Shown here: in pieces, positions 1-40,192 of the stretch
Layout: each line of letters opens with the position of its first letter
Position numbering within the stretch: position 1 is the first letter of the stretch
DNA from: Escherichia coli
GTDB taxonomy: Bacteria > Pseudomonadota > Gammaproteobacteria > Enterobacterales > Enterobacteriaceae
Direction: 5' to 3' (one strand)
DNA length: 64,000 nucleotides
Assembly (NCBI RefSeq): GCF_030013595.1
Contig: NZ_CP122768.1
Position numbers and translations under genes: made by a program
The notes under the pieces: generated by a model
What the model was told of the DNA's origin: nothing
The model's input: only the letters and a program-made list of their open reading frames with translations
Databases searched by the model: none

Positions 1-1389
1 CGTGCTCGCATCCTCAAGCGCCACGGCGGACGCAATATCCTCTGCCCGTTTTGCCGCTGTCTCGGCGCGCGTTGCCGCGGATTCCGCCGTACTTTTGCTC
101 TGTGCTGCCGCCGTCGCACTGCCAGCTGCCTCTGTCGCCTTCGTGGATGCTGTCGTGGCGCTGCCCTTCGCTGCGGACGCTTGTCTGGTCGCCTCATCTT
201 TTGAAGCAGACGCCGATGATGCCGATGACGCCGCCGAACTGGCGGACGATGCCGCTGCCGTTTTTGAGGATTCTGCACGGGTTTCCGACGCTTTCGCGTT
301 CGTTTCGGATGTCTTCGCTGCGGAAGCTGACCTCGCTGCTGCCGTGGCCTGCTCAGTGGCTTCGCCAGCCTTCGTTGTGGCTGTTGAAGCGGATGATGCG
401 GCGCTTTCTGCCGATTTTCCGGCGGCGGTGGCACTGGCTGAGGCCTGCCCGGCACTTGTTGACGCGGCACTGGCAGACGACGCAGCCGCTGTTTTTGAGC
501 CTGCCGCAGCTGAGGCGCTCTGTCCCGCTGCCGTCTCAGAAGACCTGGCGTTCGTCTCGGACGTTTTTGCCGCCTTCGCGGAATTTCCTGCCGCCGTTGC
601 CGAGGAAGCTGCGCTACTGGCGCTCAAGGATGCGTTCGTTTCTGATGATTTCGCTGCCTCTTTTGAGGCCGCCGCATCCCGGGCTGAGGTGGCAGCTTCT
701 GACGCCTTTGTGGTCGCTGCGGATGCAGAAGTGGCTGCAGATTTTTGTGACGCTGCCGCATTCGTTTCTGACGTTTTCGCCGCAGCGGCACTGGTGGCCG
801 CCGCGCTTTTTGAGGACTCTGCAGCGGCAGCACTTTTTGATGCTTCAGTGGCCTTTGTTGATGCCGTTCCTGCGCTGGAAGACGCTGACTGAGCCGACGA
901 AGCGGCCTGTCCGGCTGACGTGCTGGCTGCGCGTGCTGAGCCTGCAGCATCAGTCGCATGGGTTGCCGCCTCACGGGCAGATGTGCCGGCATCGCCGGCT
1001 GACTTCTTCGCGGCTGCCGTGTTCTGTGCCACCACGGACGCGTTACGCGCCACCTCTTCCACCATCAGCTCAAAACGGCGCAGTGCCTCCGGACGGGCAT
1101 CATCCTCCGTCATGGCACCGAGAAAATCATTCAGCGTACCGGGTCGGGAATCTTCATACACTGTGATAGTCCCGGCATGTGACGGCGGGAATCCTTCCAC
1201 CAACAGAATAACGCTGTACTGACCGTACTCAACGTCCATACTGTAACGCCCGGCTTCATCCGGATTTTCTGAGGCCAGCGTGTTCACCACCACCGTGGTG
1301 CTGTTACGTTTTGCTTTCAGCTGGATTGTGCAGTTCTGTACCGGTTTTCCTGTGCCGTCTTTCAGTACACCTGAAATCTTTACTGCCAT
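1..1389 (-). CDS. stf: side tail fiber protein Stf, N-terminal ~463 codons; 3' end runs off the window edge
   Basis: Reverse-strand reading from ATG near 1389 (MAVKISGVLKDGTGKPVQ...) stays open to position 1; Ala/Ser-rich repeats as in λ Stf; absent from ORF track because no stop lies in the window. Confidence 0.75.
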   Translation of the reverse strand, partial: MAVKISGVLKDGTGKPVQNCTIQLKAKRNSTTVVVNTLASENPDEAGRYSMDVEYGQYSVILLVEGFPPSHAGTITVYEDSRPGTLNDFLGAMTEDDARPEALRRFELMVEEVARNASVVAQNTAAAKKSAGDAGTSAREAATHATDAAGSARAASTSAGQAASSAQSASSSAGTASTKATEASKSAAAAESSKSAAATSAAAAKTSETNAAASQKSAATSASAATTKASEAATSARDAAASKEAAKSSETNASLSASSAASSATAAGNSAKAAKTSETNARSSETAAGQSASAAAGSKTAAASSASAASTSAGQASASATAAGKSAESAASSASTATTKAGEATEQATAAARSASAAKTSETNAKASETRAESSKTAAASSASSAASSASSASASKDEATRQASAAKGSATTASTKATEAAGSATAAAQSKSTAESAATRAETAAKRAEDIASAVALEDAST

Positions 1390-1400
1390 ATTCACCCCAC

Positions 1401-1428
1401 AAAAAAGCCCGCCTGAACCGGCGGGCTG
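1401..1428 (-). terminator. rho-independent terminator downstream of lom
   Basis: GC hairpin (gcccgcc...ggcgggc) followed by T-run on minus strand. Confidence 0.55.
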
Positions 1429-1453
1429 TCATAACACTGTGTTACCTGGCTAA

Positions 1454-2053
1454 TCAGAATTTATAACCGACACCCACGATGAACCCGTCAGTGCGCCAGT
1501 CACCGCTGCCGGAGCCTTCATAAGCGACGTCAACGGCCACGGATTCGGTCGGGTTAAACTGCACGCCAGCTCCCCACGCCAGAGACGTGTTGCTGTGGCG
1601 ACCGTCATCACTTCCGGTCAGCACATCGTGCGTTTTCCCCTTGTTGTCAGTTACGCGGATATAATCTCCGGAGAAAGTCGACACACGGCTGTAAGCCATA
1701 CCCGCCATCGCATACGCGCTGAACCATTCATTCACGCGCACAGACGGCCCCGCCATCACGCTGAACCAGCGGTTACGCACGGAATCTTCATGCCAGCGGG
1801 TATCGCTGTAATGCGTTTTTTGCTCATCTTCAGCGTTGGTATAACTGAATGACGTAATCAGCCCCAGCGTGTCCGTAAACTCATAACGGTATTTCACGTT
1901 AATCCCGTTCAGATTATCGCTGCCGGGAGCGTTCGTACGGGCATGAAGATACCCTGCGCTCAGTGTGGCCTGCTGCTCAGACGCCCATGCAGGCGCACCG
2001 GATACGGCCAGACAGATGGCTGCGGACAAAATGGCTGCACAAACTTTACGCAT
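1454..2053 (-). CDS. lom: Lom/Ail-family outer membrane beta-barrel protein
   Basis: 199-aa ORF with signal peptide, C-terminal YEGSGSGDWRTDGFIVGVGYKF like λ Lom, position between J and stf. Confidence 0.85.
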   Translation of the reverse strand: MRKVCAAILSAAICLAVSGAPAWASEQQATLSAGYLHARTNAPGSDNLNGINVKYRYEFTDTLGLITSFSYTNAEDEQKTHYSDTRWHEDSVRNRWFSVMAGPSVRVNEWFSAYAMAGMAYSRVSTFSGDYIRVTDNKGKTHDVLTGSDDGRHSNTSLAWGAGVQFNPTESVAVDVAYEGSGSGDWRTDGFIVGVGYKF

Positions 2054-2074
2054 AATTACCTCTCGCTTTTCTGC

Positions 2075-2101
2075 AATAAAAAAGGCGCCATTTCTGGCGC
2101 C
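2075..2101 (-). terminator. hairpin plus T-run between J and lom
   Basis: ggcgcc-N6-ggcgcc stem followed by TTTTTTATT on minus strand. Confidence 0.5.
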
Positions 2102-2120
2102 CGTATATGGGTTATAAAAT

Positions 2121-5100
2121 TCAGCTGATACTGATGCCTGCGGTGGCTTTCTTCATCACCACAACCAGCAAATCGCTGATACTTGCTGTGGGATACCAGT
2201 TATTTACCAGCCATGCTGACACCGAAAACTCCAGTGTCATGTGACCGTGACCGGCAGGCATATCAATAACACCACTGTAAATCAGCGTATTATCCAGCGC
2301 GGTACGGTTATAAATTTCAGCACCGTTTTTCCGTACTATCAGACGGCATGAGGAGTAAATATCAGTATGCTCTTTCTCATGTTTAGCGCCGCTGAATGCC
2401 ACCGCCGGAATAACAATCTGCCGGTCAAACGGCTGATCGTCATAAACCCTGACGGTGATGGTCCCTGATGGCCACCGTTCCGGTGCACGGGAGTCCCGGG
2501 GGAAAGCTTTGCCCACTGTTTTAACGAGATCGCCTTCAATCTGGTTCGCGGACAGTTTTCCCAGAACCCGACAGTTCTCGTTAATCGTGACGTTGTTGAG
2601 CGTCCCGGAGTTCGCATTCACGTTACCGCTGATATCGGCATTTTTCGCCGTCAGCCGCCCGTCCGGTGTCAGGGAAAATGCCGGTGGATTTCCGCCGCTG
2701 GTAATGGTGGGAGCCGTCAGGCGTTTCAGGAACACGTCGTTCATGAATATCTGATCGCCCTGACCAACAAACATCGGCTTTGTGTTGCCATTCGCAGGAT
2801 TAATCATCGCAATCCGGTCAGCAGCCAGAAGCACCTGACTCTGCATACCTGCTGGCGTATTCTCAATACCGGCTCCGATACCCGCAATATAAAGGCGTCC
2901 GTCCTTCATCTGCTGCAGTTTCACGGCCCACATGCTGTTCAGGTTATTATTTGTATCAACCTGAACTTTCTGTATCTGCTGGATTGCCGCGCTCTGATTT
3001 TCCAGTTTCTTATTGACGGTCTGTGTGATTTCATTGCTGACATCCGTAATGGACGTCCTGATTTCAGCCAGGTCAGGCGCAAGCTGATCGTTATCAATCT
3101 GCGTCCACAGCTCCTGAGCCAGATGGGTTTTCCCTATCTCGCCTTTGAAAAAATCCAGATAGCCGGATGCGTCATCACTCGGCTGACCGACAGCCTCCAC
3201 GAATGCCGATTTGCCAACAGTGTTCACACTGCGAACGTAAAAATAATAATCATGGCCCGGCTTAATATTGATACTGGCAGCTATCCAGTACAGCGCCGTA
3301 CCAAGATAGCGCGCTGTGGTTTCAACCTGCCTGATATCCGCAATCCGCTTTTCCGAGAACCAGAACTCAAACTGTACCGTCGGATCATAAACGGCAAGAT
3401 GCGGCGTGGCGGTTATCTGAAAATAGCCCGGCGTCAGCTCAATCCGCGACGGTGCTGCCGGTGCGGCAATCCGGAACGATACCGATGCCGGATCGCCCTG
3501 CTGTCCCCACGCATTTACCGCCCGGACTGTCAGCCTGTAGTTCCCCAGCGCCAGCTGCCTGAAGCGGTATGTGGTTTCCGTCGTCCGGGCCGTGCTGACC
3601 AGCCGCTCACTGCCGTCATCGGCGGCCACGGTCAGGCGAAGCATAAAGCTCACACCCTTCACCACCTTCGGCGTGTCCCAGCGCGCCAGCACCTGATACT
3701 CCCCACTGTCTGCGGTGACTTCTGCGGTCAGGTGCTGCACCGCTGGCGGCGTGACACCATTCACCGTGCCGCTCTGGTCGCCGTCAAAGTGCGCCCCGTT
3801 ATCCACGATGGCTTCTTTCTCCGGTACATGCTGCACGGCAGTGATGGCATACGTGCCGTCATCGTTCTCACGGATACTCACACAGCGGAACAGGCGCTGG
3901 CGCAACGTCGGCAGCTTCAGCCCCCACACGCTGTATTCTGCAACGCCGTCAGGAACACGGCTCACTTTCACCTTCACACCGTCGGTGACGGACTGAACCT
4001 CCACGCTGACCGGATTGCCACTTCCGTCAACCAGGCTTATCAGCGTGGTACCGGAGGATGGCAGCGTGATTTCACGGTCGAGCGTCAGCGTCCGGGTCTG
4101 GCTGTTCACCGCCAGCACGCGCCCGCCGGTGCTGATACCGGCATAGTCATCATCGCAGATTTCAATGACATCGCCCGGCACATGGCGAAGCCCTTCTGCG
4201 CCCACGCTGAAATCCACGGTCTGCGTTTCCAGCAGTTCCGTTTTAATCAGCCACAGCCCGGCGCGGTGTGCCTGCCCCCGGCTGGTACAGCCAAAGGCAT
4301 CCATCTTCGTAACATTACGACCGTAACGGGCAATGGCCTGCGTATCTTCAACAAGCTCTGTCGCCGTCTCCCAGCCGTTATCCGGGTCAATCCAGTTCAC
4401 CTCAACGGCATTATGGCGGTCCTTCAGGGCGCTGAAGCTGTAGCGGAACGGCGCGCCATCATCCGGCATCACCACATTACTGCGGTTATAGGTCCACACC
4501 TTATCCGACGGTCGGTCCTGCACGAACGTCAGCGTCTGCCCGTTCCATACCGGCATACAGCGCATCGCCGAGCAGAAATCGCTGAGCACATCCCACGCCT
4601 TACGTTGTGTGGTCAGCCAGGCATTACAGGTGATGCGCGGCTCCGTGCCGCCAAAACCGTCCGGCACCGACTGGTCGCAGTACTGGCCGATGACATACAG
4701 CGCCCATTTATCCACATCTGCCGCACCAAGACGTTTCCCCATGCCGTAGCGCGGATGGGTCAGCATATCCCACAGACACCAGGCCATGTTGTTGCTGTAT
4801 GCTGGCTTAAACGTTCCATCCCAGATACCGCTGTATTGCCGCGTCTGCGGGTTATAGTTCGACGGCACCTGCAGAATGCGCCCGCGCAGATGATAATTAC
4901 GGCTCACCTGCTGGCTGCCGAACTGCTCCGAGTCCACCTGCACGCCGACCAGTGCCGTGTTCGGGTAGCACTGTTTCACATCTATAATTTCGGTGTATGA
5001 CGACCAGAGCGTTTTGTTCTGCAGCTGGTCTGTGGTGCTGTCCGGCGTCATCCTGCGCATCCGGATACTGAACGGGCGCGGCGGCAGGTTATCCACCACC

Positions 5101-5600
5101 ACCGAGGCCAGATACTGCGAGGTGGTTTTGCCCTTAATGGTGATGTCTTTTTCCGTCACCCAGCCACCGTTACGTTGTATCTGAACCAGCAGGCGGACTT
5201 CCGATGGATTCCTGTCACCCTTTGAGGTGGTTTCCACCAGTGCCTGCACACCGAAGGTAAAGCGCAGTCGGTCGATGTTTGCCGACGTGATGGCGCGGGT
5301 GATCGGCGTGTCGTATTTCACTTCCGTACCCAGCACCGTCTCGGAGCCGGAGGATTCAAATCCCTCCGGCGGAGTCTGCTCCTGCTCACCAGCCCGGAAC
5401 ACCACCGTGACACCGGCGATGTTGGTATTCCCCTCACTGTCCAGCACCGGCGTACTGTTCAGCAGCACGCTTTTTAATCCATCCACCGGACCTTCAATCG
5501 GCCCTTCACTGATGGCATCAATCACACTCAGCAACTGCGTGGATTTCAGGTTGTCCTTCGCTTCGCGCGGGGTATGCCCCTTACTGCTGCCTTTACCCAT
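2121..5600 (-). CDS. J: tail tip host specificity protein J
   Basis: 1159-aa ORF, ATG start, λ gene order (downstream of I), λ J-like sequence. Confidence 0.9.
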
Positions 5601-16683: not shown

Positions 16684-20364
<3,681 letters not shown>

Positions 20365-20390
<26 letters not shown>

Positions 20391-20910
20391 TCAGCAACCC
20401 CGGTATCAGTTCATCCAGCGCGGCTGCTTTGTTCATGGCTTTGATGATATCCCGTTTCAGGAAATCAACATGTCGGTTTTCCAGTTCCGGAAAACGCCGC
20501 TGCACCGACAGGGGGATCCCGTCGAGAATACTGGCAATTTCACCTGCGATCCGCGACAGCACGAAAGTACAGAATGCGGTTTCCACCACTTCAGCGGAGT
20601 CTCTGGCATTCTTCAGTTCCTGTGCGTCGGCCTGCGCACGCGTAAGTCGATGGCGTTCGTACTCAATAGTCCCTGGCTGGAGATCTGCCTCGCTGGCCGC
20701 CCTGTAATCCTCAACCTCTTTACGGAGTTTTTCATTTTCGATATCAGCTTCCCTCTGCGCATACCACTGAATTGCCATGGCGGTATCAAATACAGATTCA
20801 ACGCCCTTACCACCTCCGGAGACGCAAGGGAGTCCCTGAGACTGCCAGCGTTCAATCGTTCGCGGATCCACGTTGAAAATTTCGGCAAGTTTCTTTTTAT
20901 TAACCTTCAT
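20365..20910 (-). CDS. Nu1: terminase small subunit Nu1
   Basis: 181 aa, N-terminal HTH, λ Nu1-like sequence. Confidence 0.9.
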
Positions 20911-21059
20911 GAAACAGTCTCACAATAAATACAGGGTCCGACATGAAAGTGCCCGAAAATGACTTTTTTATGCGTTTTCATGTCGGACCTTTTACGGATT
21001 CGATATTAGAAAAAACAAATAGTTATGTTCGAGAAGTACCGACATGATTTTCCCCGGAA

Positions 21060-21110
21060 AATTTTCATAAATAGCGAAAACCCGCGAGGTCGCCGCCCCG
21101 TAACCTGTTG
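21060..21110. other. cos: cos site (cosN 12-nt cohesive end about 21087-21098, revcomp of GGGCGGCGACCT) with flanking cosB/cosQ
   Basis: Sequence cgcgaggtcgccgccc matches the λ left-end cohesive sequence in reverse orientation, just upstream of Nu1. Confidence 0.8.
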
Positions 21111-21252
21111 GATCGACGGAAAGGACCCGTAAATGAGATGCTTTGTTGTTTTCTTGTTGGCTGTTCAACTACATGCAAGCATATGGCATAATATTTAATT
21201 GATAATCTAATAGTTATAAAAACTTGCCCCAAAACCTTAACGGAGACTAAGA

Positions 21253-21945
21253 ATGTCCAGAGAAGGAACGTTAGATTTATTGCAAGAAGTTGAAGAAACC
21301 GTTGAAATATTAAAAGATACGCAACAAATAAAACCAGTAAAGGTTAAATCAATACTTGAAAATTTAAGAAGCGCATTAGAATACGTTGCGAATGATAGTT
21401 ATGAAAAACATACCACTAACCAATCAACCCCTCGGCCAAAAATTTATTTCCCATACGGCGAGAAAAAATTTTTAGATGCTTTCTTTATTAAAAAATTAAA
21501 CTGCCAGCAACCTGAATTATCTCCATTATATGCAGTTTTTGTTTCAATCCAAGACTATCAAACTGGTAATAACTGGCTTGGAATGATGTGTAACCTCACG
21601 AACGAAGCAAAACATAGGCAACCAATCCCATTGAGTGAAGATAGTATTGTTCGAGGAATAGATGTTAATATCAATGGGTTTGGATTAATTAAGGCAGATG
21701 CTACATCAAAAATCATTTTCAGAGATAATTTCACCAATGGACAGAGAATTGAAGACTTCACCATTGAAAATGGTAAAGTTGAAAAATCAGGGAACGGAAT
21801 ACCCATCAATATTAACATGACCGAAGAGAAAAAAATAAGATTCCACGGTACAGATTATGAGGTTATTCCTTTTGTAGAGTTATGTCTAAAAGAAATAAGA
21901 GATTTTGTTAATGAAGCATATGAAATTTTAGATGCCATTGAATAA
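21253..21945 (+). CDS. hypothetical protein (230 aa), AT-rich accessory gene in the bor slot
   Basis: Long ORF with GGAG RBS, candidate TTCAAC-N17-CATAAT promoter upstream, strongly AT-rich codons, opposite strand to lysis genes; no motif recognised. Confidence 0.7.
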   Translation: MSREGTLDLLQEVEETVEILKDTQQIKPVKVKSILENLRSALEYVANDSYEKHTTNQSTPRPKIYFPYGEKKFLDAFFIKKLNCQQPELSPLYAVFVSIQDYQTGNNWLGMMCNLTNEAKHRQPIPLSEDSIVRGIDVNINGFGLIKADATSKIIFRDNFTNGQRIEDFTIENGKVEKSGNGIPININMTEEKKIRFHGTDYEVIPFVELCLKEIRDFVNEAYEILDAIE

Positions 21946-22040
21946 TAATGATTAAGTAACATGGCAGGTAATCTATTTAAACCGGCCATGTTACAAATCA
22001 TTGACGTAGAGAAAAAATGTAAAGTATATCCTTTATATAC

Positions 22041-38837: not shown

Positions 38838-39056
38838 ATGTACTTGACACTTCAGGAGTGGAACGCTCGCCAGCGACGCCCAAGAAGCCTTGAAACAGTT
38901 CGTCGATGGGTGCGCGAATGCAGGATATTCCCTCCTCCGGTTAAGGATGGAAGAGAATATCTGTTCCACGAATCAGCGGTAAAGGTTGACTTAAATCGAC
39001 CAGTAACAGGTAGCCTTTTGAAGAGGATCAGAAATGGGAAGAAGGCGAAGTCATGA
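38838..39056 (+). CDS. xis: excisionase Xis
   Basis: 72 aa λ Xis-like (MYLTLQEWNARQRRPRSLETVRRW…). Confidence 0.9.
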   Translation: MYLTLQEWNARQRRPRSLETVRRWVRECRIFPPPVKDGREYLFHESAVKVDLNRPVTGSLLKRIRNGKKAKS

Positions 39057-40104
39057 GCGCCGGGATTTACCCCCTAACCTTTATATAAGAAACAATGGAT
39101 ATTACTGCTACAGGGACCCAAGGACGGGTAAAGAGTTTGGATTAGGCAGAGACAGGCGAATCGCAATCACTGAAGCCATACAGGCCAACATTGAGTTATT
39201 TTCAGGACACAAACACAAGCCTCTGACAGCGAGAATCAACAGTGATAATTCCGTTACGTTACATTCATGGCTTGATCGCTACGAAAAAATCCTGGCCAGC
39301 AGAGGAATCAAGCAGAAGACACTCATAAATTACATGAGCAAAATTAAAGCAATAAGGAGGGGTCTGCCTGATGCTCCACTTGAAGACATCACCACAAAAG
39401 AAATTGCGGCAATGCTCAATGGATACATAGACGAGGGCAAGGCGGCGTCAGCCAAGTTAATCAGATCAACACTGAGCGATGCATTCCGAGAGGCAATAGC
39501 TGAAGGCCATATAACAACAAACCCTGTCGCTGCCACTCGCGCAGCAAAATCAGAGGTAAGGAGATCAAGACTTACGGCTGACGAATACCTGAAAATTTAT
39601 CAAGCAGCAGAATCATCACCATGTTGGCTCAGACTTGCAATGGAACTGGCTGTTGTTACCGGGCAACGAGTTGGTGATTTATGCGAAATGAAGTGGTCTG
39701 ATATCGTAGATGGATATCTTTATGTCGAGCAAAGCAAAACAGGCGTAAAAATTGCCATCCCAACAACATTGCATGTTGATGCTCTCGGGATATCAATGAA
39801 GGAAACACTTGATAAATGCAAAGAGATTCTTGGCGGAGAAACCATAATTGCATCTACTCGTCGTGAACCGCTTTCATCCGGCACAGTATCAAGGTATTTT
39901 ATGCGCGCACGAAAAGCATCAGGTCTTTCCTTCGAAGGGGATCCGCCTACCTTTCACGAGTTGCGCAGTTTGTCTGCAAGACTCTATGAGAAGCAGATAA
40001 GCGATAAGTTTGCTCAACATCTTCTCGGGCATAAGTCGGACACCATGGCATCACAGTATCGTGATGACAGAGGCAGGGAGTGGGACAAAATTGAAATCAA
40101 ATAA
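39034..40104 (+). CDS. int: tyrosine integrase Int
   Basis: 356 aa λ Int-like with C-terminal R…HxxR…Y catalytic region. Confidence 0.9.
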   Translation: MGRRRSHERRDLPPNLYIRNNGYYCYRDPRTGKEFGLGRDRRIAITEAIQANIELFSGHKHKPLTARINSDNSVTLHSWLDRYEKILASRGIKQKTLINYMSKIKAIRRGLPDAPLEDITTKEIAAMLNGYIDEGKAASAKLIRSTLSDAFREAIAEGHITTNPVAATRAAKSEVRRSRLTADEYLKIYQAAESSPCWLRLAMELAVVTGQRVGDLCEMKWSDIVDGYLYVEQSKTGVKIAIPTTLHVDALGISMKETLDKCKEILGGETIIASTRREPLSSGTVSRYFMRARKASGLSFEGDPPTFHELRSLSARLYEKQISDKFAQHLLGHKSDTMASQYRDDRGREWDKIEIK

Positions 40105-40177: not shown

Positions 40178-40192
40178 TTAGTATAAAAAAGC
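40178..40192. other. attL: attL core (15-bp GCTTTTTTATACTAA, reverse orientation) at prophage/chromosome junction
   Basis: ttagtataaaaaagc flanked by λ P'-arm sequence on the int side and attB-like CCTGC on the ybhC side. Confidence 0.8.

Follow-up and report, generated by a model that had tools for sequence, protein, structure and literature searches.

Wild lambdoid prophages as a rule carry an intact side tail fiber gene, stf, and its interruption by a frameshift is peculiar to the laboratory PaPa lineage of lambda. At the left end of the Escherichia coli DNA analyzed here, a stretch of 64,000 nucleotides that we call the window, a frame assigned to stf runs off the edge without a stop. Does such a frame mean that this prophage carries an unbroken stf, and what kind of fiber would the gene encode? 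Our answer, to which we give a probability of about 0.88, is that positions 1 to 1389 are the 5' end of stf in a lambda-like prophage of roughly 46 kb and that the gene is most likely intact and makes side fibers. [quoted passage not shown] Beyond the window, this fiber would continue through a conserved junction (..SSATNSTSETLAATPKAVK) and about 410 lambda-unrelated residues to a His-rich receptor-binding tip of the T4 gp37/lambda type; tfa would come next, and the side fibers would speed reversible adsorption. The expression and assembly of the fiber, the coiled-coil form of its shaft, and its receptor are the parts of this explanation that we infer.

An open frame at the end of a lambda-like prophage

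On the minus strand, the frame that starts at the ATG at 1389..1387 continues to base 1 through 463 codons with zero stops (translation of 1389..1), as originally predicted. Its absence from the list of open reading frames (ORFs) also has the proposed cause, in that ORFs running off the end of the window are not listed. The product begins MAVKISGVLKDGTGKPVQ..., the last residues encoded in the window are ..AEDIASAVALEDAST (aa 463), and a Shine-Dalgarno-like GGGGTGA, read from the sequence at 1392..1398 (minus strand), ends 2 nt before the ATG. From base composition, the chance of a 463-codon open frame is about 6e-7, and the frame was open in none of 2,000 shuffles. As evidence for stf, however, frame length is weak, because the stf part of the window is 61% GC and codes largely for Ala, Ser, and Thr, and the other frames across it are long too, staying open for 207, 296, and 387 codons.

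The minus-strand frame could, on such numbers, be a by-product of GC-rich repeats, with the real gene, if any, on the plus strand (2..892 or 51..1166), where frames inside stf run for 296 to 387 codons without a stop; lambda itself has an annotated antisense ORF, orf206b, inside orf-401. We give this explanation a close to negligible probability. A repeat of Ala/Ser codons (GCN/TCN) is expected to leave antisense frames open, whereas it is the minus-strand product that has a full-length PF08400 domain, a homolog solved in the virion (PDB 9e7m), and a conserved gene order. The plus-strand ORFs at 2-892 (296 aa) and 51-1166 (371 aa), which belong to stop-free runs of up to 387 codons, were rejected as composition artifacts, and the annotated orf206b of lambda is the same kind of object.

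Homology settles the minus-strand frame as coding. Residues 1-134 match the Pfam family phage_tail_N (PF08400) along the whole 134-position profile (E 2.3e-72; 241.8 bits, cutoff 26.6), and BLASTP gives 87% identity between aa 1-286 and lambda orf-401. Identity to lambda Stf is 91.8% over aa 1-134 and 92.6% over the collar, aa 1-94, which also matches residues 1-94 of the "Tail fiber protein" in PDB 9e7m/9mgh, the solved Ur-lambda collar (E 2e-51). Tail fiber families of PHROG match the product with E values down to 5e-134; a search of NCBIfam with it gave no match. The PF08400 domain, the orf-401 identity, and the gene order J-lom-stf, all on the minus strand (5600..2121, 2053..1454, and 1389..1), uphold the naming of the gene as stf. 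Its codons 1-463 occupy 1..1389, and the gene extends past base 1.

The collar domain (aa 1-94; 1108..1389, minus strand) is assigned from its identity to lambda Stf 1-94 and to the solved structure, and its role is taken from Ur-lambda. There the collar docks the fiber on the tail at the gpV/gpM junction, where twelve collar domains form a ring and carry four trimeric fibers (PMC12617516). The tail partner residues of the Ur-lambda collar are K2, W6, and R80 of gpM and E63 of gpV (PMC12617516), and all are kept in this prophage, whose gpM is 98% identical to that of lambda.

Upstream of stf, lom (1454..2053, minus strand) encodes a 199-aa outer membrane beta-barrel protein of the Ail/Lom type, as judged from its translation, from the Pfam Ail_Lom match of the identical gene in another assembly (L003), and from the annotation of relatives. 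Terminator-like hairpins lie on the minus strand in the J/lom gap (2083..2102) and in the lom/stf gap (1400..1427; hairpin 1427..1406), the latter with an 8-bp stem that includes 7 G-C pairs and with a T tract. This second hairpin is 11 nt upstream of the stf start codon, so stf expression would depend on antitermination; presumably, as in lambda, the gene is reached by late transcription that Q-mediated antitermination carries past both hairpins around lom. The records of phages mEp460 and Ayreon annotate two terminators in the lom/stf region.

The prophage is a close relative of lambda: in the 24-kb head-tail-lysis region, 76% of the sequence aligns at 97.5% identity. At 40178-40192 (minus strand), adjoining int and chromosomal ybhC, is an exact copy of the lambda att core, GCTTTTTTATACTAA, and the integrase gene (39034-40104, plus strand) encodes 356 aa with the lambda arm-binding domain. 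The attR core of L003, which has one mismatch, is found beside ybhB-bioA-bioB, 5.8 kb leftward of window base 1. The prophage occupies the classical attB-lambda site and, with the left end taken from L003, is about 46 kb long.

Several other features of this prophage and its relatives were noted. In the b region of L003 between tfa and attR (L003 18143-21400), the ea genes of lambda are replaced by a gene for an AraC-family regulator (19648-20391) together with remnants of IS3-family transposases. Directly downstream of the cI-like repressor gene (31102-31803), at the rexA position of lambda, a 285-aa ORF (31931-32788, plus strand) matches the nuclease-type Pfam family NYN (E 6.8e-9) and, weakly, PADLOC HEC-09 (E 2e-4). 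A great many E. coli prophages (4,791 blocks indexed) encode an identical protein in the interval from cI to N, and the ORF may be a lysogen-expressed defense or nuclease moron. The space from Nu1 (20365-20910) to the lysis genes has, on the strand opposite to the late operon, a 230-aa ORF (21253-21945, plus strand) that gave no Pfam or PADLOC match and may be either a moron or spurious. The nin region holds genes for a Rha/KilAC antirepressor-type protein and a Dam-type N6-adenine methyltransferase (25964-26686 and 27425-28012, both minus strand), neither of which lambda has there. Close relatives of the early/lysis region of the prophage have a porin gene, whose annotation reads ompC or porin. 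The idea of a phage-borne porin interacting with an OmpC-binding fiber was rejected, since the prophage part of the window has no porin-size ORF.

The PaPa frameshift site and the length of the shaft

That lambda PaPa carries a frameshift yielding a 401-codon product, as the original prediction stated, is borne out by the records. In NC_001416, orf-401 occupies 19650-20855 and orf-314 occupies 21029-21973, and a note in the HK630 record reads [quoted passage not shown] Both frames of NC_001416 are open only between 20819 and 20853, and the frameshift must therefore fall in that stretch. At lambda 20833-20835, where NC_001416 and HK630 have CCC, the lambda record KT232076, with its uninterrupted stf of 774 codons, has CCCC. 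The PaPa lesion thereby corresponds to codons 395/396 (..NRKA/P..), with six out-of-frame residues added before the stop at 401.

The prediction went on to state that the prophage in the window reads through this point. Because 463 open codons exceed 401 numerically, the count by itself might be taken to prove read-through of the PaPa position at about codon 401, but the two proteins cannot be counted against each other in this way. The last residues in the window, at aa 463, align with lambda ..AEDIASAVALEDADT, which ends at aa 358, and window base 1 is opposite lambda nt 20723 in the DNA alignment. With 105 additional residues in the shaft of this protein, window codon 463 corresponds to lambda codon 358, and the lambda lesion site falls 110 nt (about 37 codons) past the window edge. 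Moreover, similarity to lambda stf, as followed in L003, stops after the junction motif ..ATPKAVK (lambda K385), ten codons before the lesion site. Beyond it, L003 continues SAYDNAEKRLQKDQ.. (SAYDNAEKRLQ..), which is unrelated to the VVMDETNRKAP.. of lambda, and this allele therefore has no counterpart of the PaPa CCCC run. Proof of read-through from the open codons alone is thus highly improbable, and the window does not support the read-through claim: the alignment puts the PaPa frameshift outside the region present, an outcome that the original prediction itself had named as a refutation, and the window alone says nothing about that site.

The mapping of the edge comes from composition-adjusted BLASTP together with the DNA alignment. 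Whole-protein BLASTP against Ur-lambda Stf without low-complexity masking was tried and set aside, as it gave a misleading 520-residue alignment that drifts through the shaft.

The shaft itself (aa 135-463; 1..987, minus strand) is recognized by its composition (38% Ala, 23% Ser, 12.5% Thr) and its periodicity: self-identity is about 0.40 at all offsets that are multiples of 7 and about 0.19 elsewhere. We infer that it forms a coiled coil. Tandem Repeats Finder, run on the DNA, reported only two trivial arrays, and the repeats of the shaft are visible only as protein heptads. The stretch of the shaft that can be aligned to lambda without gaps, aa 135-286, is 82% identical. By BLASTP, the gain of 105 residues over the lambda shaft consists of two parts. 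One, of about 84 residues (12 heptads; 280..531, minus strand), is evident from lambda aa 273-286 matching both aa 273-286 and aa 357-370 of the window protein, and its borders are ambiguous in that the flanking AAKTSETNA motif is repeated. The other, a gap in the alignment to lambda Stf, comprises 21 residues (3 heptads) at aa 396-416 (142..204, minus strand). Given the 7-residue periodicity, 84 plus 21 extra residues amount to exactly 15 heptads inserted in register, which suggests that fiber length changes through in-register gain or loss of heptads. Assuming a coiled coil with a rise of about 0.15 nm per residue, the 15 heptads would add roughly 15 nm.

The remainder of stf in assemblies with identical DNA

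The course of stf past base 1 was read from other strains. An exact-sequence look-up of the J protein returned 15 contigs, eight of which were examined as loci. Window positions 1-1460 are 100% identical to six E. coli assemblies (L003-L007 and L009), and a further one, L008, departs from the window at a single synonymous base. In a search of 5,426 complete genomes of E. coli, the closest over window 1-2100 reaches 97.4%. Followed leftward, the frame ends after 1116 codons in L003-L008, whose six proteins differ at no more than two positions, and after 1137 codons in L009, where 50 of 53 differences lie beyond aa 900, nearly all of them thus in the tip. Each of the seven assemblies that share the J protein and extend through stf has an uninterrupted gene that encodes a gp37-like tip and is directly followed by tfa, which is partial in L008 and L009, where the contigs end. 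The Tfa of L003 has 193 aa and is 93% identical to lambda Tfa.

It could still be that stf in the source strain is a remnant, cut by a stop, a frameshift, an insertion sequence, or a deletion just past base 1, and that the prophage makes no side fibers. The window does end at stf codon 463, the IS3-family remnants in the b region of related loci indicate that insertion elements have been active nearby, and the protein cluster at 90% identity includes shorter members of 661 to 1050 aa, many of them labeled partial. Against this stand the seven unbroken copies of stf with tfa, six of them in DNA identical to window 1-1460 and the seventh a single synonymous base away, and the structural genes within the window, which have lambda lengths (H 853, M 109, L 232, B 533, A 641, and Nu1 181 aa). 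We regard a remnant as unlikely and favor an intact gene.

This left extension is other strains' DNA, identical up to the window edge, and it comes with two tips (1116- and 1137-aa proteins), so the C terminus of the window's own stf is uncertain. On the strength of those sequences, stf is very probably intact in the source strain too. The predicted functional side fibers accordingly keep part of their standing: an intact gene of 1116 or 1137 codons followed by tfa favors them, in the outside assemblies, and the window itself lends them no support.

A mosaic fiber, its possible receptors, and its relatives

In the full-length protein from the assemblies with identical DNA, segments of different affinity follow one another. 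Like Ur-lambda Stf (774 aa; orf-401 plus orf-314 in PaPa), the protein is encoded after J and lom and has the collar and a heptad shaft, which reaches to about aa 460. The likeness extends to the junction at aa 417-490 (..ALEDA.TT.KG.VQLSSATNSTSETLAATPKAVK; 84% identical), the tip (78.5%), and the Tfa chaperone (93%). Apart from its longer shaft, it departs from Ur-lambda Stf in the middle, where aa 491-902, some 410 residues, replace the 143-residue middle of lambda and are unrelated to it (forced global identity of 23.6%, the noise level). The head of the tip is different and shorter here, the head-region loop of lambda being 32 residues longer and unlike the one in this protein, and the segment with the CCCC run that is affected in PaPa is absent.

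The middle contains segments like the phage Mu tail fiber S (PDB 5yvq, 8ju3) and the T4 gp34 trimerization domain (PF21446, aa 663-762). These are local matches, confined to aa 441-521 and 813-907 for Mu S and to aa 663-777 for gp34; overall architecture and virion context differ from both, and segments only are shared. The tip, aa 903-1116, is His rich and has a collar domain (PF07484) with HxH repeats. It is 72% identical to the T4 gp37 tip over the last 215 residues (PDB 2xgf, E 1e-86), with which it shares the collar domain, the HxH needle repeats, and the C-terminal ..NIAFNYIVRLA. The chaperones are of different kinds, gp38 in T4 and a lambda-type Tfa here.

Engineered fusions of the lambda Stf N terminus to foreign C termini are functional (PMC11338833), and a natural mosaic on a lambda collar should therefore assemble. 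What such a fiber would bind is a separate matter. In Ur-lambda, the side fibers attach to OmpC and make adsorption 10- to 30-fold faster (PMC12617516). In T4, determinants of OmpC/lipopolysaccharide binding have been mapped at T939, V941, G943, Y949, and A955, among seven positions (PMC5221442). All five of these are substituted in the tip head of this protein, which also has a 2-residue gap relative to T4, and the other two, G938 and Y953, are kept.

The central tail fiber may bear on host range as well. J (2121..5600, minus strand), identified by its identity to lambda J, encodes a central tail fiber/tip protein of 1159 aa that is 83% identical overall to its lambda counterpart, from which it diverges at about aa 835-870 and over the final ~150 residues. 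On the DNA, these divergent parts are window 2121-2600 and about 2990-3100 (minus strand; codons ~1000-1159 and ~835-870). With its C-terminal receptor-binding part divergent, the central fiber may use a receptor other than LamB. A tentative reading, to which we give somewhat less than even odds, is that the allele is a natural long-reach chimera that may bind a receptor other than the OmpC of K-12 and, with the divergent C terminus of J, confer a host range unlike that of lambda. To call the adsorption apparatus "wild-type-like," as the original prediction did, is too strong for a phage in which the Stf middle is unrelated to that of lambda, the tip head differs, and the end of J is divergent.

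The gene is nevertheless an ordinary one of a known kind and is already annotated. NCBI already lists the identical 1116-aa protein under the accession WP_289396142.1 ("prophage tail fiber N-terminal domain-containing protein"), many lambdoid phage records have the same long shaft at 94 to 96% identity, and a query composed of lom and the stf 5' part is at least 80% present in 3,272 of the 5,426 complete E. coli genomes. The family to which it belongs consists of long E. coli prophage fiber proteins of 1116 to 1176 aa, some of them annotated stfR; strain 2017.09.02CC, for instance, has a 1176-aa relative, 95% identical, beside tfaQ and ydfJ. These stfR-type relatives differ from the window allele only in point changes or in variants of the tip or the middle region.

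For the engineering of lambda-based delivery particles with swapped tips, the natural junction at ..ATPKAVK and the alternative tips that follow it are of modest interest. For the family, the main lesson concerns how its alleles are compared. Shaft length varies in whole heptads, and codon counts are therefore not transferable between repeat-rich fiber alleles; the position of a window edge needs to be mapped by alignment before a known lesion is called absent.
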